Sequence record: OQ870567.1
Source: Escherichia phage SR04
Reading direction: 5' to 3' (one strand)
DNA: 40,594 nt
Below, one piece after another: positions 18,512-27,028 of this stretch; position 1 is the first letter of the stretch; each line of letters begins with the position of its first letter. The position numbers were made by a program, and so were the translations under genes. The notes below the pieces were generated by a model. The model was not told where the DNA came from, did not search any database, and saw nothing but the letters and a program-made list of their open reading frames with translations.

Positions 18512-18604
18512 TCAGTGTTTAGGGCGGTTGTTCGACCCGAACCACTTGTACATGCAGTAAAGGGCCAGAAGTCCGACCCAGTAAATTACATGGATGGTGT
18601 CCAT
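18512..18604 (-). CDS. Small membrane ORF (30 aa, MDTIHVIYWVGLLALYCMYKWFGSNNRPKH), gp6.3 position
   Basis: Hand translation; AAGGAGG seven nt upstream; overlaps the exonuclease 3' end by 19 nt. Confidence 0.45.
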   Translation of the reverse strand: MDTIHVIYWVGLLALYCMYKWFGSNNRPKH

Positions 18605-19455
18605 AGGATGACCTCCTTGGACTTAGGGTCATAGTCAGAGGCTCGACAAATACGAGCGACCTGAGCTTGTACCAGAAGTTCCTCCTCGGTCATGCCAGCC
18701 TTAGCAGCCAGTGTAACCATGCAGTCCCACAGCGTCATGTCTTCACGCTTCGGATACTTCTTCCACTCAGTCTTAATCTGGCCTTTGTTCTTGCCAGTCT
18801 TAAGCTCGCGGCTCTCCTGCACGAAGTAATACGGTTCGTCAAGGAATGCACGAGTGGTGTCCTCACCCATCCCAGGAATACCGCCGTAGCCATCTGTAGT
18901 GTCACCCTTGATGGTCTGCTCCATGTGCCAGTAGTCTGCCTCGGAAGTCGTATGACTCAGGATTTCACCAGTGGTTAACCAGAAGAACTCACAGTTCGGG
19001 ATGGTCTTGAAGTCCTTATCGCAGGACACCAGCACCGCATGGTCGCATCCGACAATCTGAGGTCTGGTCCCGATGATACCCATACAATCGTCACCCTCAA
19101 GCGTTGGACGCAGGAAGCTGTTGAACCGTGGGTCAGCCATCACTTCGGCTACGAACTTCTTGTAACCTACAGGCTTGCGAGAACCCTTACGGTTAGCCTT
19201 ATAGGTAGGCAAAACGTCCTTACGCCAGTTGTTATCATCAGTAAAGCACATCACAATCTTAGCGTCTTTCCACGCCTTGCGCTTCTTAACGATTTCAGCG
19301 ATGGTGTTCTCAAGGATACGGCGAGCCTTCTCGTGGTCGCAGATAAGGGTCCAGATGTCATCACCCCAGTCTGTCTCTTCCTCGGCAGCAGCCATAGAAG
19401 AGAATACTAGGTAATCGCCATCAAGAACAAGAGCTATCTTCTTCTCAGCACCCAT
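18586..19455 (-). CDS. 5'-3' exonuclease (gp6-like); probable start at internal Met (MGAEKK, 289 aa)
   Basis: PVGY, EGDD.MG, CDKDFKTIPNC, TIKGD.TDGY and LWDC are shared with T7 gp6. AGGAGG lies 8 nt before the 19455 ATG; the track start at 19488 has no RBS. Confidence 0.85.
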   Translation of the reverse strand: MGAEKKIALVLDGDYLVFSSMAAAEEETDWGDDIWTLICDHEKARRILENTIAEIVKKRKAWKDAKIVMCFTDDNNWRKDVLPTYKANRKGSRKPVGYKKFVAEVMADPRFNSFLRPTLEGDDCMGIIGTRPQIVGCDHAVLVSCDKDFKTIPNCEFFWLTTGEILSHTTSEADYWHMEQTIKGDTTDGYGGIPGMGEDTTRAFLDEPYYFVQESRELKTGKNKGQIKTEWKKYPKREDMTLWDCMVTLAAKAGMTEEELLVQAQVARICRASDYDPKSKEVILWTPSM

Positions 19456-19894
19456 CGTCCAGACCTCCTGTAGCCATAGCGACTGCATATGGCATCAAGG
19501 GAACTTTAGGCTCCTCAATACGTTCCAGAGTCACCTCAGGCTTCAGCCATTTGTTGGCGAACTCATGTGCCATGTCGTTGTCCTCTGAGTTGAGGTGGGA
19601 CATCAGGTTCCAGAAGTTTGAAGACATCTCAGTCTCCTTCTCAACCCGGCGATATACTCCCCAGTCATTTACCTCTGAACCGTAGCTGTCATTCCACATA
19701 CCACTGGCTACGATGGTCAGCCCGATGAACTGACGCCACTCATAGGCCTCAGCGGGAGACTCGGTATATGAATCAACGTCCTTCTCTGTCAAGGTGTATG
19801 ACCAAGATGCGTAGAACTCAGCGTACTTGCGGTGCTCCTTCTCACACTCACCTATGTCAAGGACCAGCTCTTTCAGACTTTCAGGTATCTTCAT
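19445..19894 (-). CDS. Hypothetical acidic protein (149 aa) at the gp5.9 position
   Basis: Long ORF between gp5.7 and exonuclease; no recognisable motif. Confidence 0.5.
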   Translation of the reverse strand: MKIPESLKELVLDIGECEKEHRKYAEFYASWSYTLTEKDVDSYTESPAEAYEWRQFIGLTIVASGMWNDSYGSEVNDWGVYRRVEKETEMSSNFWNLMSHLNSEDNDMAHEFANKWLKPEVTLERIEEPKVPLMPYAVAMATGGLDDGC

Positions 19895-20100
19895 AGACAG
19901 CCTCCGTGTTGGTTCAGGAACTTGGTGCCTTCAGCGGTAATCTCCCACGCACCGTTGTTACGCCCATCCATAGACAGGCAGCTTAGATGTCCACGACTCG
20001 CAGCCTCAGCCACAAGTGCAGCGTTGTTGCGCACATAGTTGGACTGGAAGGTCTTCGGACAGGACTTAAGGGCCGCTAGGACCCGTAAGTATTCACTCAT
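19891..20100 (-). CDS. gp5.7-like protein (69 aa)
   Basis: LKSCPKTFQSNYVRNNA.LVAEAASRGH.SCLS...GAWEITA.GT.FL is near-identical to T7 gp5.7. Confidence 0.85.
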   Translation of the reverse strand: MSEYLRVLAALKSCPKTFQSNYVRNNAALVAEAASRGHLSCLSMDGRNNGAWEITAEGTKFLNQHGGCL

Positions 20101-20381
20101 TGCTTGACCTCGAATCGCAGGTTGGACACACCGGACTGACCCTCACCAAAGGCGTCTACCAGCTCCTCCTTGATGATCTTCTTGGTGACAATTTCAATGG
20201 CAGACTCAGGGCCTGACTCTATTGCTGCTTTGACCATAGCCATCTGAAGCCCATCCAGCTTCTCACCATCAGCGTAGGCTTTAGTCATCTCAGCCAGTTG
20301 GCGACACACTGTCTCTTCTCTCTTTGAGCTAACAACCATCTTCAGGTCAAAACTCACACGAATACGTTTAGTAATAGCCAT
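20097..20381 (-). CDS. gp5.5-like protein (94 aa), positional
   Basis: Synteny; overlapping start and stop codons with neighbours. Confidence 0.5.
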   Translation of the reverse strand: MAITKRIRVSFDLKMVVSSKREETVCRQLAEMTKAYADGEKLDGLQMAMVKAAIESGPESAIEIVTKKIIKEELVDAFGEGQSGVSNLRFEVKQ

Positions 20382-20539
20382 TAGTCTTCTCCTTCTTCGT
20401 TATGTTCTTTCAGAATTTCACGAATGTCTCGACTGCACTGTCCACTGAGGTTTGGACTATAACGAGACTCCTCGTGTCCACACCACCAAGCTGACCGCAT
20501 CAGGTCTTTGACCTCCTGCTCACTATAAGTTTTAGCCAT
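20381..20539 (-). CDS. Small ORF (52 aa, MAKTYSEQEVKDLMRSAWWCGHEESRYSPNLSGQCSRDIREILKEHNEEGED), gp5.3 position
   Basis: Hand translation; TAATG overlaps with the DNA polymerase stop and the next gene start. Confidence 0.45.
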   Translation of the reverse strand: MAKTYSEQEVKDLMRSAWWCGHEESRYSPNLSGQCSRDIREILKEHNEEGED

Positions 20540-22710
20540 TAGTGACACTCCTTCCACGTTGGTCCAATCTTACCTTCGGTATCAAGGACACATTTAAAGT
20601 TATAGAACTCACCCACCTTACGCATAGCAAGTTGAGCAATCTTGACTACTTCTTCGGCAATCTCCTGAGTACGGCACGCAATCTGCAATTCGTCGTGAAC
20701 CCATGCCATGTACGCAAAGTCTCCTTCCCAGCCGTGAACATACCCTGCCTCTTCAAGCATACGTTCAGTCTCGACAATCCAGTGCTTACAGACAACCGCA
20801 CCATCGCCTTGAAGTAATGCGTTTAGTGCTGAGTGTGGAGACCGGATGTGGATACGGCGACCGTCAAGTCCACGCAGCCAACGGCGTTTCCACTTCACGA
20901 TGTTCTCTCCATCCACCCACTTAGAGTCTGAGATTAACGTACTACTCACAGCTTCCCTGAGGTCTTTGATGGCTGGTGTACCCTCAATGAATTTCTTCAT
21001 GAGAGCTGAACCTTCCTTCTTCCCACCGCCTACTATAAGTCCAATCTTAGCGGCCCCTGCACCATACAGGAACGCATAGATGAACCTCTTAGCGTTGTTA
21101 CGGAAAGCATCATGGTCATGGTTCGACTTATCGCGTGGGACGTTAGGTGCTAACCCAGCGTTTACTGCGTTGGCCCAGTGTATGTCCCCTTCGACCACAG
21201 TCTTCGCATAGTCTCCACCATCAAACGGAGCCGCTCGGTTCCCCAGACAACGAAGCTCAAGACCTGAAGCATCCACACCTACTTGAATCCAAGGGTCTGG
21301 CTTACCATCCGTCTTGTTCCAAGCTGCACCGAAAGCACCACGGCAAGTCTCACCGTATGGAGCACCATTAGCCGGGACTTGAGCCATGTTTGGTGAACTG
21401 TGAGTCGCACGTCCGGTTACTGCCCCGCATGGGTTTATTGAACCGTGCATACGTCCGTCTGGACCTACAAGTTTCAACCATGCGTTCTTACCTTCAGCCA
21501 CCTGACCGATGCGCTTCTGGACTACCAGATACTCACGGACCAGCTCTACGCAAGCCTGAGCCTCTGCGTCTGGTAACTTAACGTGTTCCAACGTCTCGTC
21601 ATCGACTACAGGTTTCCCAGTGTCAGTGAAGTCCACAGGCTCCCAACCACGCTCCATCAAGACTTTCGCTAAGTGGTCTCCGCTTCCCGGATTAAACTCA
21701 ACGTAAGTGATTGGCGTGAACGGTGCTCCTTCCATCGTGTCTCGTGAGTCGAACTCGCAAGGCTCCATACCTAAGCGTTGAGCTTTGTTCTTCGGCTTCT
21801 TGAATACTGACCCGACCTTAGGATACACGACTCGCGGATACTTCGGAAGGTCCTTGCCTGTCCGTGGGTGCTTGAAGAACTCCTTGCCTCCCTTTGGTGC
21901 GTACCAGCTGCCGAAAGTCGAACGCAGCTTGTCCAGCAGCTCCGCACGTTTGACGGTGAGTTCACGATATAAGCCTTCGACCATCTCGGTGTTCATCGGA
22001 TAGCCGTTACGCTCCATCTTCGCACAGGTCCACGCAGCATCGTGTTCCAGACGCAACGCATAAATCTGTTCGAAAGCGAACTGTTCAGACTGGAAGTAAT
22101 ACTTGTCAGTCAGGAACTTCTTGAACAACGCCAGTGTGACCACAACGTCTTGAACGTTATAGTCTAGCATCTCCTGAGATGGGAACAACCATTCGTCCCC
22201 AGCCTTATATTCGATACCTTCAGCCTTGCACTTGGCAACGTAATCGTGTTTGTACTCACCTTTCATCTCACCGAGACGATAGCCCCAAGCCTCAAGAGAC
22301 TGGCGTCCCATCATCTTAGGTGGCAGACGACCAGCTTTCACTGCGCCCATGTCTGAGAACTTAATGTTTGGATACATCAAGCGTCCCAGTACCAAGGTAT
22401 CAATCATCTTATGTTTCGGGAAGTTAAAGCGTTTCCCAAAGTACAAACGCTTCAGCTTGTCTATAGCCGGGACGTCATAGTTGATACCGTTGTGGAATAC
22501 CAGCATACCATCAGGTGATGCGGCAATCTCTTCCACTTTATGAACATACTCTTTGAAGCCACCGACGATACCGACCATCGGAGCTACCCCGTACTTAAGG
22601 GTCTCATTCGACTCGGCGTTAATCAGGACCCCACAGTGGAACTGGGAGACTGTATCAAGGAGACCGTTGGTCTCGATGTCAGAACCCCAGATACTCTTAA
22701 GGTCAAACAT
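20539..22710 (-). CDS. DNA polymerase (gp5-like); start at the third Met of the track ORF (MFDLKS, 723 aa)
   Basis: DIETNGLL, KFHCGV, VFHNG..YDVPA, YNVQDVVVT, GAVTGRATH, DASGLELR, AYMAWVHDE match T7 gp5. GGAGG lies 7 nt before the 22710 ATG. Confidence 0.9.
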   Translation of the reverse strand: MFDLKSIWGSDIETNGLLDTVSQFHCGVLINAESNETLKYGVAPMVGIVGGFKEYVHKVEEIAASPDGMLVFHNGINYDVPAIDKLKRLYFGKRFNFPKHKMIDTLVLGRLMYPNIKFSDMGAVKAGRLPPKMMGRQSLEAWGYRLGEMKGEYKHDYVAKCKAEGIEYKAGDEWLFPSQEMLDYNVQDVVVTLALFKKFLTDKYYFQSEQFAFEQIYALRLEHDAAWTCAKMERNGYPMNTEMVEGLYRELTVKRAELLDKLRSTFGSWYAPKGGKEFFKHPRTGKDLPKYPRVVYPKVGSVFKKPKNKAQRLGMEPCEFDSRDTMEGAPFTPITYVEFNPGSGDHLAKVLMERGWEPVDFTDTGKPVVDDETLEHVKLPDAEAQACVELVREYLVVQKRIGQVAEGKNAWLKLVGPDGRMHGSINPCGAVTGRATHSSPNMAQVPANGAPYGETCRGAFGAAWNKTDGKPDPWIQVGVDASGLELRCLGNRAAPFDGGDYAKTVVEGDIHWANAVNAGLAPNVPRDKSNHDHDAFRNNAKRFIYAFLYGAGAAKIGLIVGGGKKEGSALMKKFIEGTPAIKDLREAVSSTLISDSKWVDGENIVKWKRRWLRGLDGRRIHIRSPHSALNALLQGDGAVVCKHWIVETERMLEEAGYVHGWEGDFAYMAWVHDELQIACRTQEIAEEVVKIAQLAMRKVGEFYNFKCVLDTEGKIGPTWKECH

Positions 22711-22730
22711 GGTTAATCCTCCGTTTAGTC

Positions 22731-22770
22731 TAATCATAAAGGCCACTCGATGTGAATGACCTTGAGTCTA
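22731..22770 (-). promoter_or_regulatory. RNase III-type processing hairpin upstream of gene 5
   Basis: Minus strand AAGGUCAUUC-ACAUC-GAGUGGCCUU, a 10-bp stem with G-U pairs; same motif as at 30281 and 39451 and like the T7 R1.1 upper stem. Confidence 0.45.
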
Positions 22771-24930: not shown

Positions 24931-24953
24931 CATCCCTAAGGTGATAGTTTAGG
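24931..24953 (-). promoter_or_regulatory. Variant phage RNAP promoter (CACCTTAGGG in place of CACTATAGGG)
   Basis: Minus strand CTAAACTATCACCTTAGGGATG; the -17 to -5 region matches the other promoters but -4 and -3 differ. Confidence 0.5.
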
Positions 24954-25164
24954 CTTTGAAGAACTGAGCCAACTGGTCAGCTTTGGTGTCAGCTTGACGT
25001 GCATTCATGCCAGCTTCCAGTGACGCGATGGTCAGCTTGTCAGCCAGAGCAGCAGCATCAGCCGCGCCGGTCGCAGTCTTCTTTTCTACCTTTCGTTCCA
25101 GTACCGCAGCACGACGATAACCACGCACCACCAGACGACCAAGAAATTCGATAAGTTTAATCAT
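24949..25164 (-). CDS. Hypothetical protein (71 aa), gp3.8 position
   Basis: ATG start with RBS; between the amidase gene and the variant promoter. Confidence 0.45.
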   Translation of the reverse strand: MIKLIEFLGRLVVRGYRRAAVLERKVEKKTATGAADAAALADKLTIASLEAGMNARQADTKADQLAQFFKA

Positions 25165-25188: not shown

Positions 25189-25650
25189 TTAACCACGGTC
25201 GGAAGTGACCAGTTCATTGGTAGACAGCCAGCGTTGCAAGTCAAAACTTGGACACGCCTTAGGTGCTACGTCATGGTGTGCTTTGATTTCTGCCTGAGGA
25301 TACAGGACCTTCAGGTCAGCCAGCTTGTTTCGCAGGGAGTTCATCTGGGCTGGAGTGAAGTTAGCTTCAAACTGACCCTTAGCGTCAATTCCCCCTACAA
25401 GGCAGACGCCTACGGACCGGGAGTTCCAATCCTTAACGTGTGACCCTACGACATTTACCGGGCGACCCTCTTCCACAGTACCATCACGCTTGATGATAAA
25501 GTGGTAGCCTACATCCAGCCAACCTTGCTGCTTGTGCCACATACGGATGGTCTCTACCCCGATGTCCATCTCTGGCTTGGTAGCCGAACAGTGGACGAAG
25601 ATAGCGTCAGTCCGGGACCGTGGGTTGAATTGCACCTTACTCACCATCAT
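25189..25650 (-). CDS. N-acetylmuramoyl-L-alanine amidase / T7 lysozyme (gp3.5-like, 153 aa)
   Basis: TDAIFVHCSATKP, WLDVGYHFIIKRDGTVE.GR, GVCLVGGID.KG.F.ANFTPAQM, AHH.VAPKACPSFDL.RW...NELVTSDRG are near-identical to T7 gp3.5. Confidence 0.95.
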   Translation of the reverse strand: MMVSKVQFNPRSRTDAIFVHCSATKPEMDIGVETIRMWHKQQGWLDVGYHFIIKRDGTVEEGRPVNVVGSHVKDWNSRSVGVCLVGGIDAKGQFEANFTPAQMNSLRNKLADLKVLYPQAEIKAHHDVAPKACPSFDLQRWLSTNELVTSDRG

Positions 25651-25861
25651 ACACCACCAGCTCTACAGCTACTAGGTTCAGATGACGTTGGAAGCGGTTA
25701 GCATCCGTGGTGTGCATCTGGAGCAACTTATGGTTGAAGACGTGAGAGTTACTAATCTTCACGTACACTTCACCCGGCTTACCGTGGACGATAAACGCAT
25801 AGCCTACCGGGATTTTATCAATGGTCAGACGCTGACGAACGACCTTAACTTCTTGGGTCAT
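25637..25861 (-). CDS. Hypothetical protein (about 74 aa) between endonuclease I and amidase; no T7 counterpart at this position
   Basis: The track ORF begins at GTG 25864; an ATG at 25861 has AAGGAG 7 nt upstream. Overlaps both neighbours. Confidence 0.45.
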   Translation of the reverse strand: MTQEVKVVRQRLTIDKIPVGYAFIVHGKPGEVYVKISNSHVFNHKLLQMHTTDANRFQRHLNLVAVELVVYDGE

Positions 25862-26315
25862 CACTTAACTCCTTTCTTTTTTTTGGAATGAGTACACCTG
25901 AAGGCAGACGTACAGTCGTCTCTCGCAGCCACTCAACCGGGATGAACTTATCGGCATACTTAAAGCCGTTCTTTTCGCACCATGCGCCATACGTGGTCGG
26001 AGACCCTTTGTATAACTTGGAGCGGGAACTTGAGAACACGAACCGGATGTCTAACTCTGGGTGCTGTTCTCGTACCAGAAGGTGCTTCTTACGGTCATCA
26101 CTATCGAAGATACCTTTGGTCTCCACGATGATACCGTTAGGAAGAATAAAATCTGGTGTGTACTTGTGGTCGGAAGCCGGAATCACATAGTTGATATAAT
26201 GGCTTTCGTACTCCGCTTTGACGCCGTTCTGTTCCAGCCACTGCTGGTTCTTGGCTTCAAGTCCAGAGCGGTAGGCACCCACAGAGTGCCCCCGTTTTGC
26301 AGACCATTGGGCCAT
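25845..26315 (-). CDS. Endonuclease I (gp3-like, Holliday junction resolvase, 156 aa)
   Basis: AFRSGLE, YVIPAS.H.YTPDF.LPNGI.VETKG...SDDRKKHLL.REQHPELDIR.VFSSSR.KLYKGSPT.YG is near-identical to T7 gp3. Confidence 0.95.
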   Translation of the reverse strand: MAQWSAKRGHSVGAYRSGLEAKNQQWLEQNGVKAEYESHYINYVIPASDHKYTPDFILPNGIIVETKGIFDSDDRKKHLLVREQHPELDIRFVFSSSRSKLYKGSPTTYGAWCEKNGFKYADKFIPVEWLRETTVRLPSGVLIPKKRKELSDDPRS

Positions 26316-27028
26316 TAGAAGTCGTAATCGCCACCAGAGTTGGACTCGGAACCACCTTCGGAACCATCGTCACCGAAGTCATCGTCACCGAAGTCATCGT
26401 CACCGAAGTCACCATCGGTTGACGCTTTGTATCCAGTACCGAGGTCTTCATCATCACCCCAGCCACCATCGCCACCAGCACCATCACCTTTCCACTCCTT
26501 CAGTTCTACCAGAAGGCAGGACTCAAGCTGGAGCTTAACGCTTGCACCAGTCGCAGCGTTCCACTTGAACGGCAGGACTTTAAACTTGACCTTCAGCTTT
26601 GAGCCAGCACCAATATTCGGGACGTCACGGATTAACTTAGCATCGGTGTCGTAGAACCGTAATACGATAGGCTCTGACTTGCCATCTTTAAGGTAAGACG
26701 CAAAGCATTTAAACTTCAGGGTAACAGTACCATCACCATTCTCAATCCACGGCATATCACCTTCACGCGGCTCGATAGGCTTCTTGCCACGCTGAACCTG
26801 AGGTGGGTTCTTCTCGTGGTCTGCGAGTGCTTTTGCATACGCATCGTCGTGAATCTTCTGTAAGACATCAATCATCTTACGGACCTTCGGGTTGCTCAGG
26901 TCGAATGTCAGGTTAACCTTATGCTCACCACGCTCGTTAAACTTGGTGTCTGCTTTGTTCAGCCATGCGTAAGGCTCAACGATACCAGATACCGGAGTGG
27001 TGAAAGTCTTCAGTTGCTCTTTAGCCAT
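26315..27028 (-). CDS. Single-stranded DNA-binding protein (gp2.5-like, 237 aa)
   Basis: AEPYA, GDMP...NGDGT, GASVKLQLES, and an acidic C-terminal tail ending DF, as in T7 gp2.5. Confidence 0.9.
   Translation of the reverse strand: MAKEQLKTFTTPVSGIVEPYAWLNKADTKFNERGEHKVNLTFDLSNPKVRKMIDVLQKIHDDAYAKALADHEKNPPQVQRGKKPIEPREGDMPWIENGDGTVTLKFKCFASYLKDGKSEPIVLRFYDTDAKLIRDVPNIGAGSKLKVKFKVLPFKWNAATGASVKLQLESCLLVELKEWKGDGAGGDGGWGDDEDLGTGYKASTDGDFGDDDFGDDDFGDDGSEGGSESNSGGDYDF
26364..26408. repeat. Perfect 3 x 15-bp tandem repeat (CATCGTCACCGAAGT) inside the SSB acidic tail
   Basis: Read directly from the sequence; encodes the repeated FGDDD units in the gp2.5 C-terminus. Confidence 0.85.

Follow-up and report, generated by a model that had tools for sequence, protein, structure and literature searches.

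An acidic accessory protein at the gp5.9 position of a K1F-like phage carries a head motif of gp5.9-family proteins

RecBCD is a hub in the conflict between phages and their hosts: a phage has to disarm it, and doing so sets off several bacterial immune systems. To our knowledge, only a handful of RecBCD inhibitors (Gam, gp5.9 and Abc2) are understood. T7 gp5.9 (PF25708; PDB 8B1R and 9GMD), an inhibitor of RecBCD and MukBEF, binds the RecB arm as a coiled-coil DNA mimic (PMC9836394); its activities against RecBCD and MukBEF, which it also blocks, are experimental findings (PMC9836394, PMC7617805). Defence systems that sense RecBCD inhibition have been described as well (bioRxiv 10.64898/2026.07.10.737580). 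Here we analyse a 149-amino-acid (aa) protein encoded at the gp5.9 position in a stretch of 40,594 nucleotides (nt) from Escherichia phage SR04 (OQ870567.1). The whole stretch is called the window and supplies all coordinates; residue numbers refer to the full 149-aa protein. Its genome is that of a Kayfunavirus (K1F-like phage), read in reverse orientation, and its best matches are Escherichia phages phiHAO2-2, Zappy and vB_EcoP_F.

Like T7 gp5.9, the 149-aa protein is small, acidic and non-essential-looking, has a class II expression context, and is encoded between gp5.7 and gene 6 by a gene that overlaps the gene 6 start. By its sequence it is a member of phrog_4382, not of PF25708, with which it shares the optional N-terminal head and the slot. 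We tentatively place it among the accessory proteins that phages direct against the host, with ties to the RecBCD-inhibitor family, which would be no surprise in kind.

A constrained accessory gene in a cassette site between gp5.7 and gene 6

The open reading frame (ORF), its two neighbours and the signals at the junctions are the following.

19445..19894, minus strand: complete ORF of an acidic accessory protein, phrog_4382 member; 149 aa plus stop, ATG at 19894, stop at 19445-19447
19901..19905, minus strand: Shine-Dalgarno GGAGG of the 149-aa ORF, within the gp5.7 3' end, 8 nt upstream of the ATG; kept across cassette types
19891..20100, minus strand: gp5.7 homolog, 69 aa; phrog_1334 (E=1e-38), 77% identical to T7 gp5.7; upstream junction of the cassette site
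18586..19455, minus strand: gene 6 exonuclease from its likeliest start, ATG 19453-19455 (MGAEKKIALV...); phrog_107 (E=5e-81), PF02739
19463..19468, minus strand: Shine-Dalgarno GGAGGT of gene 6, read as Gly-Gly codons inside the tail of the 149-aa protein; conserved in the slot-end DNA alignment

A sequence-only reading of this DNA had listed an acidic 149-aa ORF at 19445-19894, and the ORF listing, the sequence and the isoelectric point (pI) bear this out: the protein has a pI of 4.49, 29 Asp and Glu against 14 Lys and Arg, and a net charge of -15. The gene order is DNA polymerase, a 58-aa ORF, gp5.5, gp5.7, the 149-aa ORF and gene 6. The start codon of the 149-aa ORF overlaps the gp5.7 stop (ATGA, 19891-19894), its final 11 nt overlap the likeliest gene 6 start, and no sigma-70-like promoter or terminator was found within the slot. 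The longest gene 6 ORF (18586-19488, minus strand) runs from ATG 19488 (MQSLWLQEVWTMGAEKK...), a start that is probably not used; the internal ATG at 19453-19455 is probably the conserved one, since GGAGGT precedes it and relatives annotate the shorter 289-aa form.

Given that the protein matches phrog_4382 (E=1.3e-47; residues 1-130 align to positions 6-129 of the 130-position profile), that 174 phage records contain homologs and that the protein evolves at a low ratio of nonsynonymous to synonymous substitution (dN/dS), the ORF is not a chance frame. Between Kayfunavirus alleles dN/dS is 0.08-0.26 at dS 0.18-0.34, indicating purifying selection. Homologs formed 80 clusters in a set of 5.8 billion proteins, and an exhaustive HMMER search of 1.84 billion representatives gave 25 clusters only. 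The phrog_4382 family is small, phage-only and confined to phages of Enterobacterales, a restriction that fits a conserved enterobacterial target. Acidity is kept throughout the family (pI 4.2-4.9, net charge -10 to -20). Members from the Ounavirinae (Felix-O1-like phages: Mooglevirus, Suspvirus and others) are 112-130 aa long and consist of the N-terminal domain (N-domain) only; all T7-like members (Kayfunavirus, Przondovirus, Dickeya and Pectobacterium phages) combine it with a helix-loop-helix, and this architecture of N-domain plus motif is retained across all of these phages at 40-60% identity. Together, the data show a real, constrained and translationally coupled class II (DNA metabolism) accessory gene.

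Two entries in public databases call for comment. A 127-aa phrog_4382 member (the Klebsiella phage SH-Kp 152410 homolog) is misnamed 'Baseplate hub assembly protein' in UniRef. One member of a Klebsiella-phage cluster (P0081) stands under a bacterial RefSeq accession, WP_169661167.1, from Flammeovirga aprica; it is most likely phage contamination of that assembly and not a bacterial homolog.

To catalogue what lies between gp5.7 and gene 6, 80 T7-like loci were fetched via gp5.7. The interval between the two genes measures -3 to 578 nt. Nothing fills it in 21 of the 80 loci, including some in phages whose gene 6 is 99% identical to that of the window; in the empty-slot relatives, gene 6 is coupled straight to gp5.7, with a GTG start overlapping the gp5.7 stop. 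Occupied slots hold at least seven unrelated small proteins:

phrog_2251-like protein: 22 loci
phrog_12303 protein: 13 loci
149-aa protein family: 9-10 loci
phrog_18166 protein: 8 loci
54-73-aa acidic protein: 5 loci
zinc-ribbon peptide: 2 loci
66-aa acidic protein: 1 locus

All cassette types have the junction GGAGGCTGTCTATGA on the upstream side and the gene 6 start on the downstream side in common. The 149-aa ORF is thus one allele of a hypervariable accessory cassette site between gp5.7 and gene 6 of T7-like phages, and the earlier suggestion of an accessory slot holds across the survey. The slot is also the exact place of gp5.9-family genes in relatives, but position alone says little on function.

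Some cassettes deserve a note of their own. The phrog_12303 protein is basic (58 aa, pI 8-10) and of unknown function; it is found at locus L003, 3371-3547 (Klebsiella phage IME321 gp27) and at 13 other loci, and in Przondovirus slots its gene often follows the N-domain-plus-motif gene or a gp5.9-like gene, directly before gene 6. The phrog_18166 cassette ('cluster 3', SGDWTDSHKSE) was considered as a distant relative of the N-domain because of a weak match by hidden Markov model (HMM) and was rejected at an hhalign probability of 1%. A phrog that this type of cassette matches, phrog_2294, is labelled 'ribonucleotide reductase', which is probably guilt of neighbourhood.

The head shared with gp5.9-family proteins

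An AlphaFold2 (AF2) model of the 149-aa protein is confident over residues 1-126 and, together with the alignments, divides the protein as follows.

19634..19894, minus strand: N-terminal alpha/beta domain, residues 1-87, a1-b1-b2-a2-a3-b3-b4
19517..19633, minus strand: C-terminal module, residues 88-126; in the AF2 model helix 89-100, loop LNSEDN 101-106, helix 107-116 and strand 120-125
19559..19615, minus strand: core 'SHLN-EDN' motif, residues 94-112 (FWNLMSHLNSEDNDMAHEF), common with the N-terminal extension of many PF25708 proteins
19445..19516, minus strand: disordered C-terminal tail, residues 127-149 (EEPKVPLMPYAVAMATGGLDDGC), with a predicted local distance difference test score (pLDDT) below 50 in the AF2 model

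The N-domain is, as modelled, an acidic alpha/beta domain of no known fold. Its conserved residues are G15, E16, E20-H21-R22-K23, F27, F56, G65, W67, D69 and G72, and conservation falls mainly at two hairpins, G15-E16...E20-H21-R22-K23 and G65-x-W67-x-D69-x-x-G72, all of whose named residues are present in the 149-aa protein at invariant or near-invariant alignment columns.

The helix-loop-helix that follows bears LMSHLNSEDNDMAxEF; at its loop, H100, N102, E104 and N106 are invariant. The sequence-only reading had called the slot protein unrelated to gp5.9; this stands for T7 gp5.9 itself and for residues 1-87, but residues ~90-116 are homologous to the N-terminal extensions of other gp5.9-family proteins. 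The 66-aa cassette protein (phrog_6163, E=3e-20) opens with FDDLMSHLNGEDNSLAEEF, the same motif as residues 94-112, and this shared motif explains a weak phrog_6163 match to residues 90-115 of the 149-aa protein (E=0.001). When a gp5.9-like HMM was run over 1,505 six-frame ORFs from the window and three relatives, it matched the 149-aa ORF and its homologs only, via the motif alone, with E=1.8e-4 for the window ORF and 9e-7 with a richer model. Alignment of the motif by hhalign gave probabilities of 97-98% (E 7e-11 to 4e-13), and with independent larger alignments 95.2% (E=2.8e-8, 52% identity over 27 columns). Since the codons of the motif differ synonymously between the window and locus L019, the constraint lies on the protein level.

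The AF2 model of P0212, a gp5.9 homolog of 77 aa that bears the motif, has it in the same register: helix 1 ends ...LMSH, the loop reads LNGEEN, and helix 2 follows. This second helix runs for 29 residues into a coiled coil in P0212 and for 10 (residues 107-116) in the 149-aa protein, where KPEV and a strand come next. The 149-aa protein therefore has the 'head' of a gp5.9-like protein and not its DNA-mimic body.

The tail beyond the module is the translated gene 6 leader and is not specific to this protein, because unrelated slot proteins end alike and its DNA holds the gene 6 Shine-Dalgarno sequence and start. In Kayfunavirus SP7 an unrelated 92-aa phrog_2251 protein occupies the slot and ends in the same 23 residues, and cluster-0 cassettes likewise end in the leader tail. 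The shared end, EEPKxxLMPxxVAMATGGLDDG[CF] (~23 residues), was seen in unrelated Kayfunavirus cassettes at 19445-19516 of the window, at 2501-2575 of locus L005, and in loci L006 and L017. The Kayfunavirus tail AVAMATGGLDD was also considered as a relic of the GVDNW box of gp5.9-like proteins and rejected: the pairing comes from a low-confidence hhalign extension only and is not backed by the DNA alignment. The gene 6 leader is the better explanation, since unrelated cassettes share it.

For comparison with gp5.9 itself, the T7 sequence was taken from NC_001604 (52 aa, pI 4.08, phrog_9014). Direct homology of the 149-aa protein to it was rejected (BLASTP E=8, different PHROGs, no PF25708 match). 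The PF25708 profile, with a gathering score of 24.5 bits, recovered its positive controls: 27.8 bits for T7 gp5.9, 62.8 for the protein of locus L081, 46.7 for P0212 and 52.5 for Erwinia phage Y2 gp58. Two of the slot's cassette types belong to PF25708, namely the 54-aa acidic protein (E=1.3e-17) and the 66-aa protein (residues 21-66, E=4.4e-15). Since T7 gp5.9 passes the cutoff and the L081 protein, 48% identical to T7 gp5.9 over 27 residues and also bearing the GVDNWxGY box, bridges the two, these PF25708 proteins are genuine, though divergent, gp5.9 homologs. The gp5.9-like family comprises 3,354 clusters, including some from Erwinia, Pectobacterium, Aeromonas and Pseudomonas phages, and gp5.9 is far more widespread than T7, T3 and Yersinia phages. 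Neither Foldseek nor a profile of motif-bearing proteins recovered the solved gp5.9 from the PDB.

The L081 protein (2701-2886) joins a T7-type N-half (REAWNDMQVYIQSLEKD) to the widespread GVDNWxGY-type C-half. This and other divergent PF25708 homologs in Klebsiella-type T7-like phages (the slots of L043, L059, L070 and L072) were missed by tblastn with T7 gp5.9. A full fusion of N-domain, motif and gp5.9, suggested by the 139-aa phrog_4790 profile, was not seen among the best 120 of the 3,354 gp5.9-like clusters; the one 101-aa protein, P0253, proved to be a deletion fusion, described below.

Cronobacter phage GW1, also a Kayfunavirus, is collinear with the window at ~85% nucleotide identity, and the alignment breaks exactly at 19448-19890. 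In its slot a 66-aa gene encoding motif plus gp5.9 (PF25708) replaces the 149-aa gene, and no N-domain was found anywhere in the GW1 genome. Its product, GW1_00035 (locus L095, 26552-26752), carries the erroneous public label 'putative tail spike protein'.

The two parts occur as a gene pair in four genera of an unrelated phage family, the Chaseviridae, represented by Erwinia phage Y2, Pectobacterium phage PM1, Escherichia phage 4HA13 and Erwinia phage Faunus. A gene for a 62-85-aa motif-plus-gp5.9-like protein lies just downstream of the dUTPase gene, and a gene for an acidic N-domain protein of ~131 aa comes next, the stop and start of the two overlapping. The latter match family HMM positions 10-88 in Y2 (E=7e-8), 4HA13 (6e-8) and Faunus (4e-5); the PM1 match is weaker and partial (E=7e-3). 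Y2 gp59 is also a structural neighbour of the AF2 model of the 149-aa protein. The Chaseviridae pair is the separate-gene counterpart of the window fusion, and when two proteins come from separate but coupled genes in one lineage and are joined in part in another, they usually work together.

A natural deletion was also met with. P0253 (101 aa, on a 38-kb contig) is an in-frame fusion of a 4HA13_0049-like gene, just after GVDNWDG, to the last ~45 residues of its neighbour, the N-domain gene. The deletion removes the acidic tail of the motif-plus-gp5.9 protein and the entire N-domain, so both functions are apparently dispensable in some setting.

Weighing the possible roles

The explanation that we favour, and hold tentatively, is that of a non-enzymatic host-binding protein in the gp5.9/RecBCD pathway, with a mechanism other than coiled-coil DNA mimicry. 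The 149-aa protein would bind a host complex rather than catalyse a reaction; the RecBCD DNA-end processing machinery would be the likeliest target, with another gp5.9 target such as MukBEF as the alternative. Both protein types would dock or assemble through the shared SHLN-EDN head, and the effector would be the acidic N-domain in place of the coiled-coil DNA-mimic body.

A gp5.9-related role is plausible because of the shared motif, the Chaseviridae gene pair and the allelism in GW1. It is also favoured by the family-wide acidity and by the window's having no other gp5.9-type gene: tblastn and two HMMs over all six-frame ORFs found none elsewhere in it. The non-enzymatic part of the explanation follows from the lack of an enzyme signature in Pfam, NCBIfam and the PDB, and from conserved positions that are mostly Gly, aromatic and hairpin residues. 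Pfam gave no match, even at E<=10; the sole NCBIfam match is meaningless (15 bits against a cutoff of 500); and the PDB sequence search returned no relative (best E 0.39). An enzyme or defence-system annotation was rejected on these negative searches. The sequence-only reading had named detectable homology to a known enzyme as grounds for giving up an inhibitor role, and none came up in Pfam, NCBIfam, or the PDB sequence or fold searches.

Several observations weigh against a gp5.9-related role. T7 gp5.9 has no SHLN-EDN head, the PF25708 profile does not match the 149-aa protein at E<=10, and the protein has no coiled coil, GVDNWxGY box or acidic tail, the parts by which gp5.9 contacts RecBCD and acts as a DNA mimic. 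The label 'RecBCD inhibitor' on the motif-bearing relatives is given by homology, T7 gp5.9 alone having been assayed. Every source annotates the family members as hypothetical, and our literature search turned up no study addressing the function of the family, or that of the slot in phages of the K1F-like or Klebsiella T7-like type. Position is weak evidence for function, because the slot is empty in 21 of 80 loci and otherwise holds at least seven unrelated cassettes. In Mooglevirus Sf17 the N-domain (E=2e-23) occurs alone, with no motif or gp5.9-like ORF in 90 kb; given this genome and GW1, where motif plus gp5.9 occurs alone, neither module needs the other. Finally, cassettes with the N-domain (10 loci) and the gp5.9 domain (6 loci) co-occur in 0 of the 80 loci, with 0.75 expected, which is not significant; mutual exclusivity was accordingly dropped as statistical evidence, and an apparent co-occurrence came from spurious short HMM domains.

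The Sf17 gene (gp064; locus L094, 20076-20444) lies between nrdD and nrdG, abutting nrdG, in a nucleotide-metabolism cluster.

A bolder form of the favoured explanation makes the SHLN-EDN head a portable targeting head carried on different bodies: a coiled-coil DNA mimic, or the acidic N-domain, which T7-like phages would provide in cis and Chaseviridae in trans. On this view the 149-aa protein would belong to a structurally new class of inhibitors directed at RecBCD or a different gp5.9 target (e.g. MukBEF), maybe selected for evading retron Ec48, OLD and other systems that detect conventional RecBCD inhibitors. We consider this form rather unlikely.

Among the alternatives, the one that survives best is an accessory host-takeover or counter-defence protein whose target has nothing to do with RecBCD or gp5.9. 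The slot would simply be permissive, and the motif would be a portable structural or oligomerisation element without target specificity. A site with at least seven unrelated cassette types that is so often empty is what this alternative expects, as is the N-domain standing alone between nrdD and nrdG in Sf17, a genome without a gp5.9-like gene; moreover, no structural similarity of the 149-aa protein to known inhibitors was found. However, three independent links to the gp5.9 family, namely the motif homology, the pair in four Chaseviridae genera and the replacement in GW1, would then all be coincidence, and we judge an unrelated target possible but on the unlikely side.

The protein could instead be a partner or 'anti-guard' of gp5.9-type inhibitors, its N-domain neutralising sensors of RecBCD inhibition (retron Ec48, OLD or similar) or regulating the inhibitor, and the motif forming the interface between the N-domain and gp5.9-like heads, an interface that is intramolecular in the fusion. 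RecBCD inhibitors do trigger several defence systems (bioRxiv 10.64898/2026.07.10.737580), the Chaseviridae N-domain gene is translationally coupled directly downstream of the motif-plus-gp5.9-like gene, and an N-domain fused to its partner's head only fits Rosetta-stone logic. Yet the window phage encodes no gp5.9-type inhibitor that could be protected or regulated, and the N-domain of Sf17 is also without a partner, which makes an anti-guard improbable.

The idea put forward in the sequence-only reading, a classical DNA-mimic RecBCD inhibitor equivalent to gp5.9 in which the acidic surface of the whole protein imitates duplex DNA, appears slimmer still. The conserved acidity (pI 4.2-4.9 family-wide), with its strongly negative net charge, and the slot shared with gp5.9-family genes speak for it, and DNA mimics are structurally diverse (PMC9836394). 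On the other side, gp5.9 is the more acidic of the two proteins. The 149-aa protein is predicted to fold as a compact alpha/beta domain and not as an elongated dimeric helix, a topology that does not suggest surface carboxylates at the spacing of DNA phosphates, which DNA mimics usually bear on an elongated dimer. It also lacks precisely the stretch with which gp5.9-like proteins mimic DNA.

Last, a decaying, functionless remnant in which a truncated gp5.9-like gene is fused to unrelated sequence could draw on the retention of only the head, on the low-confidence hhalign extension that pairs the tail AVAMATGGLDD with LSALEAGGVDN, and on the occurrence of natural deletion fusions (P0253) and of frequently empty slots, but it is very improbable and largely refuted by the selection and conservation data, namely the dN/dS of 0.08-0.26, the N-domain-plus-motif architecture conserved across genera at 40-60% identity and an AF2 model that is confident over residues 1-126, and its tail homology is not backed by the DNA alignment.

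Neighbouring genes, significance and comparison with known systems

The remaining genes of interest in the window are listed below.

20539-22746: T7-type DNA polymerase
beside gp5.7: gp5.5; phrog_1452, weak PF11247
22774-22938: 54-aa ORF; phrog_13039
24949-25164, minus strand: 71-aa ORF between lysozyme (3.5) and primase/helicase (4); phrog_1950; basic (pI 10), unlike the 149-aa protein
25637-25864: small ORF between genes 3 and 3.5; phrog_15211

The last three ORFs had been named in the sequence-only reading as further accessory slots; all are present, and each lies in a conserved PHROG of unknown function. The ORF at 24949-25164 shows a weak likeness to Pfam DUF5471 (E=0.0011, below cutoff). 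The 58-aa acidic ORF at 20381-20557 (minus strand; pI 4.77, phrog_20928, unknown function), between DNA polymerase and gp5.5, is a further accessory slot that was absent from that list; it stands at the place of T7 gene 5.3.

The acidic, Phe-terminated tails of T7 gp2.5 and gp4 dock on the polymerase. The acidic tail of the window's gp2.5-type single-stranded DNA-binding protein (26315-27028, minus strand), DGDFGDDDFGDDDFGDDGSEGG...GGDYDF, is repetitive: three tandem GDD(D)F units precede the terminal DYDF. It is a more elaborate version of the polymerase-docking tail of T7 gp2.5. Most alleles of the leader-encoded tail at the cassette site finish ...DDGF or ...DDDF, which recalls the gp2.5 and gp4 tails; the likeness could be coincidental and forced by the overlap with the gene 6 start.

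K1F-like and KP32/K11-like phages are under development against E. coli K1 and Klebsiella. They are without a T7-type gp5.9, and the 149-aa protein is a concrete candidate for their handling of RecBCD; the modular link ties an orphan family in therapeutically relevant phages to the gp5.9 family. The Chaseviridae gene pair predicts a physical complex. The precise junctions of the cassette-exchange hotspot, with its at least seven alleles, offer a hunting ground for further anti-host genes, and if the target of the 149-aa protein proves different, the slot is still a natural collection of small proteins directed at the host. Neither the motif link nor the pairing of genes in Chaseviridae nor the exact junctions of the cassette site had been described, so far as the literature could be searched.

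Among known systems, the phage proteins lambda Gam and T7 Ocr, both small and acidic, put DNA-processing enzymes of the host out of action by binding and not by catalysis. Both are all-helical elongated dimers. Their likeness to the 149-aa protein is one of analogy only, no sequence or fold similarity having been found. T7 gp5.9 (52 aa) forms a parallel coiled-coil dimer in which an N-terminal strand acts as a brace (PMC9836394), whereas the 149-aa protein is predicted to be an alpha/beta domain with a short helix-loop-helix, and it is less acidic than T7 gp5.9 (pI 4.49 against 4.08; 19.5% against 25% Asp plus Glu).

The motif-bearing gp5.9-family proteins, such as GW1_00035 of GW1 (66 aa), RCIP0140_00029 of a Klebsiella phage (77 aa) and Y2 gp58 of Erwinia phage Y2 (85 aa), share the 'LMSHLNsE(D/E)NxMAxEF' helix-loop-helix with the 149-aa protein, and in Kayfunavirus and Klebsiella T7-like phages they occupy the identical slot. 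In these relatives the motif is N-terminal and is followed by a helix of ~29 residues, the GVDNWxGY box and an acidic tail, whereas in the 149-aa protein it stands C-terminal to a different domain. The N-domain-only homologs, namely Y2 gp59, PM1_034 and 4HA13_0050 (~131 aa) and Ounavirinae proteins such as Shigella phage Sf17 gp064 (phrog_4382), resemble the N-domain of the window protein (family HMM E 2e-23 to 7e-3; Foldseek against BFVD, E=4e-13 to 1e-2) and are equally acidic. They differ in being without the SHLN-EDN module, which the Chaseviridae carry on the adjacent, coupled gp5.9-like gene.

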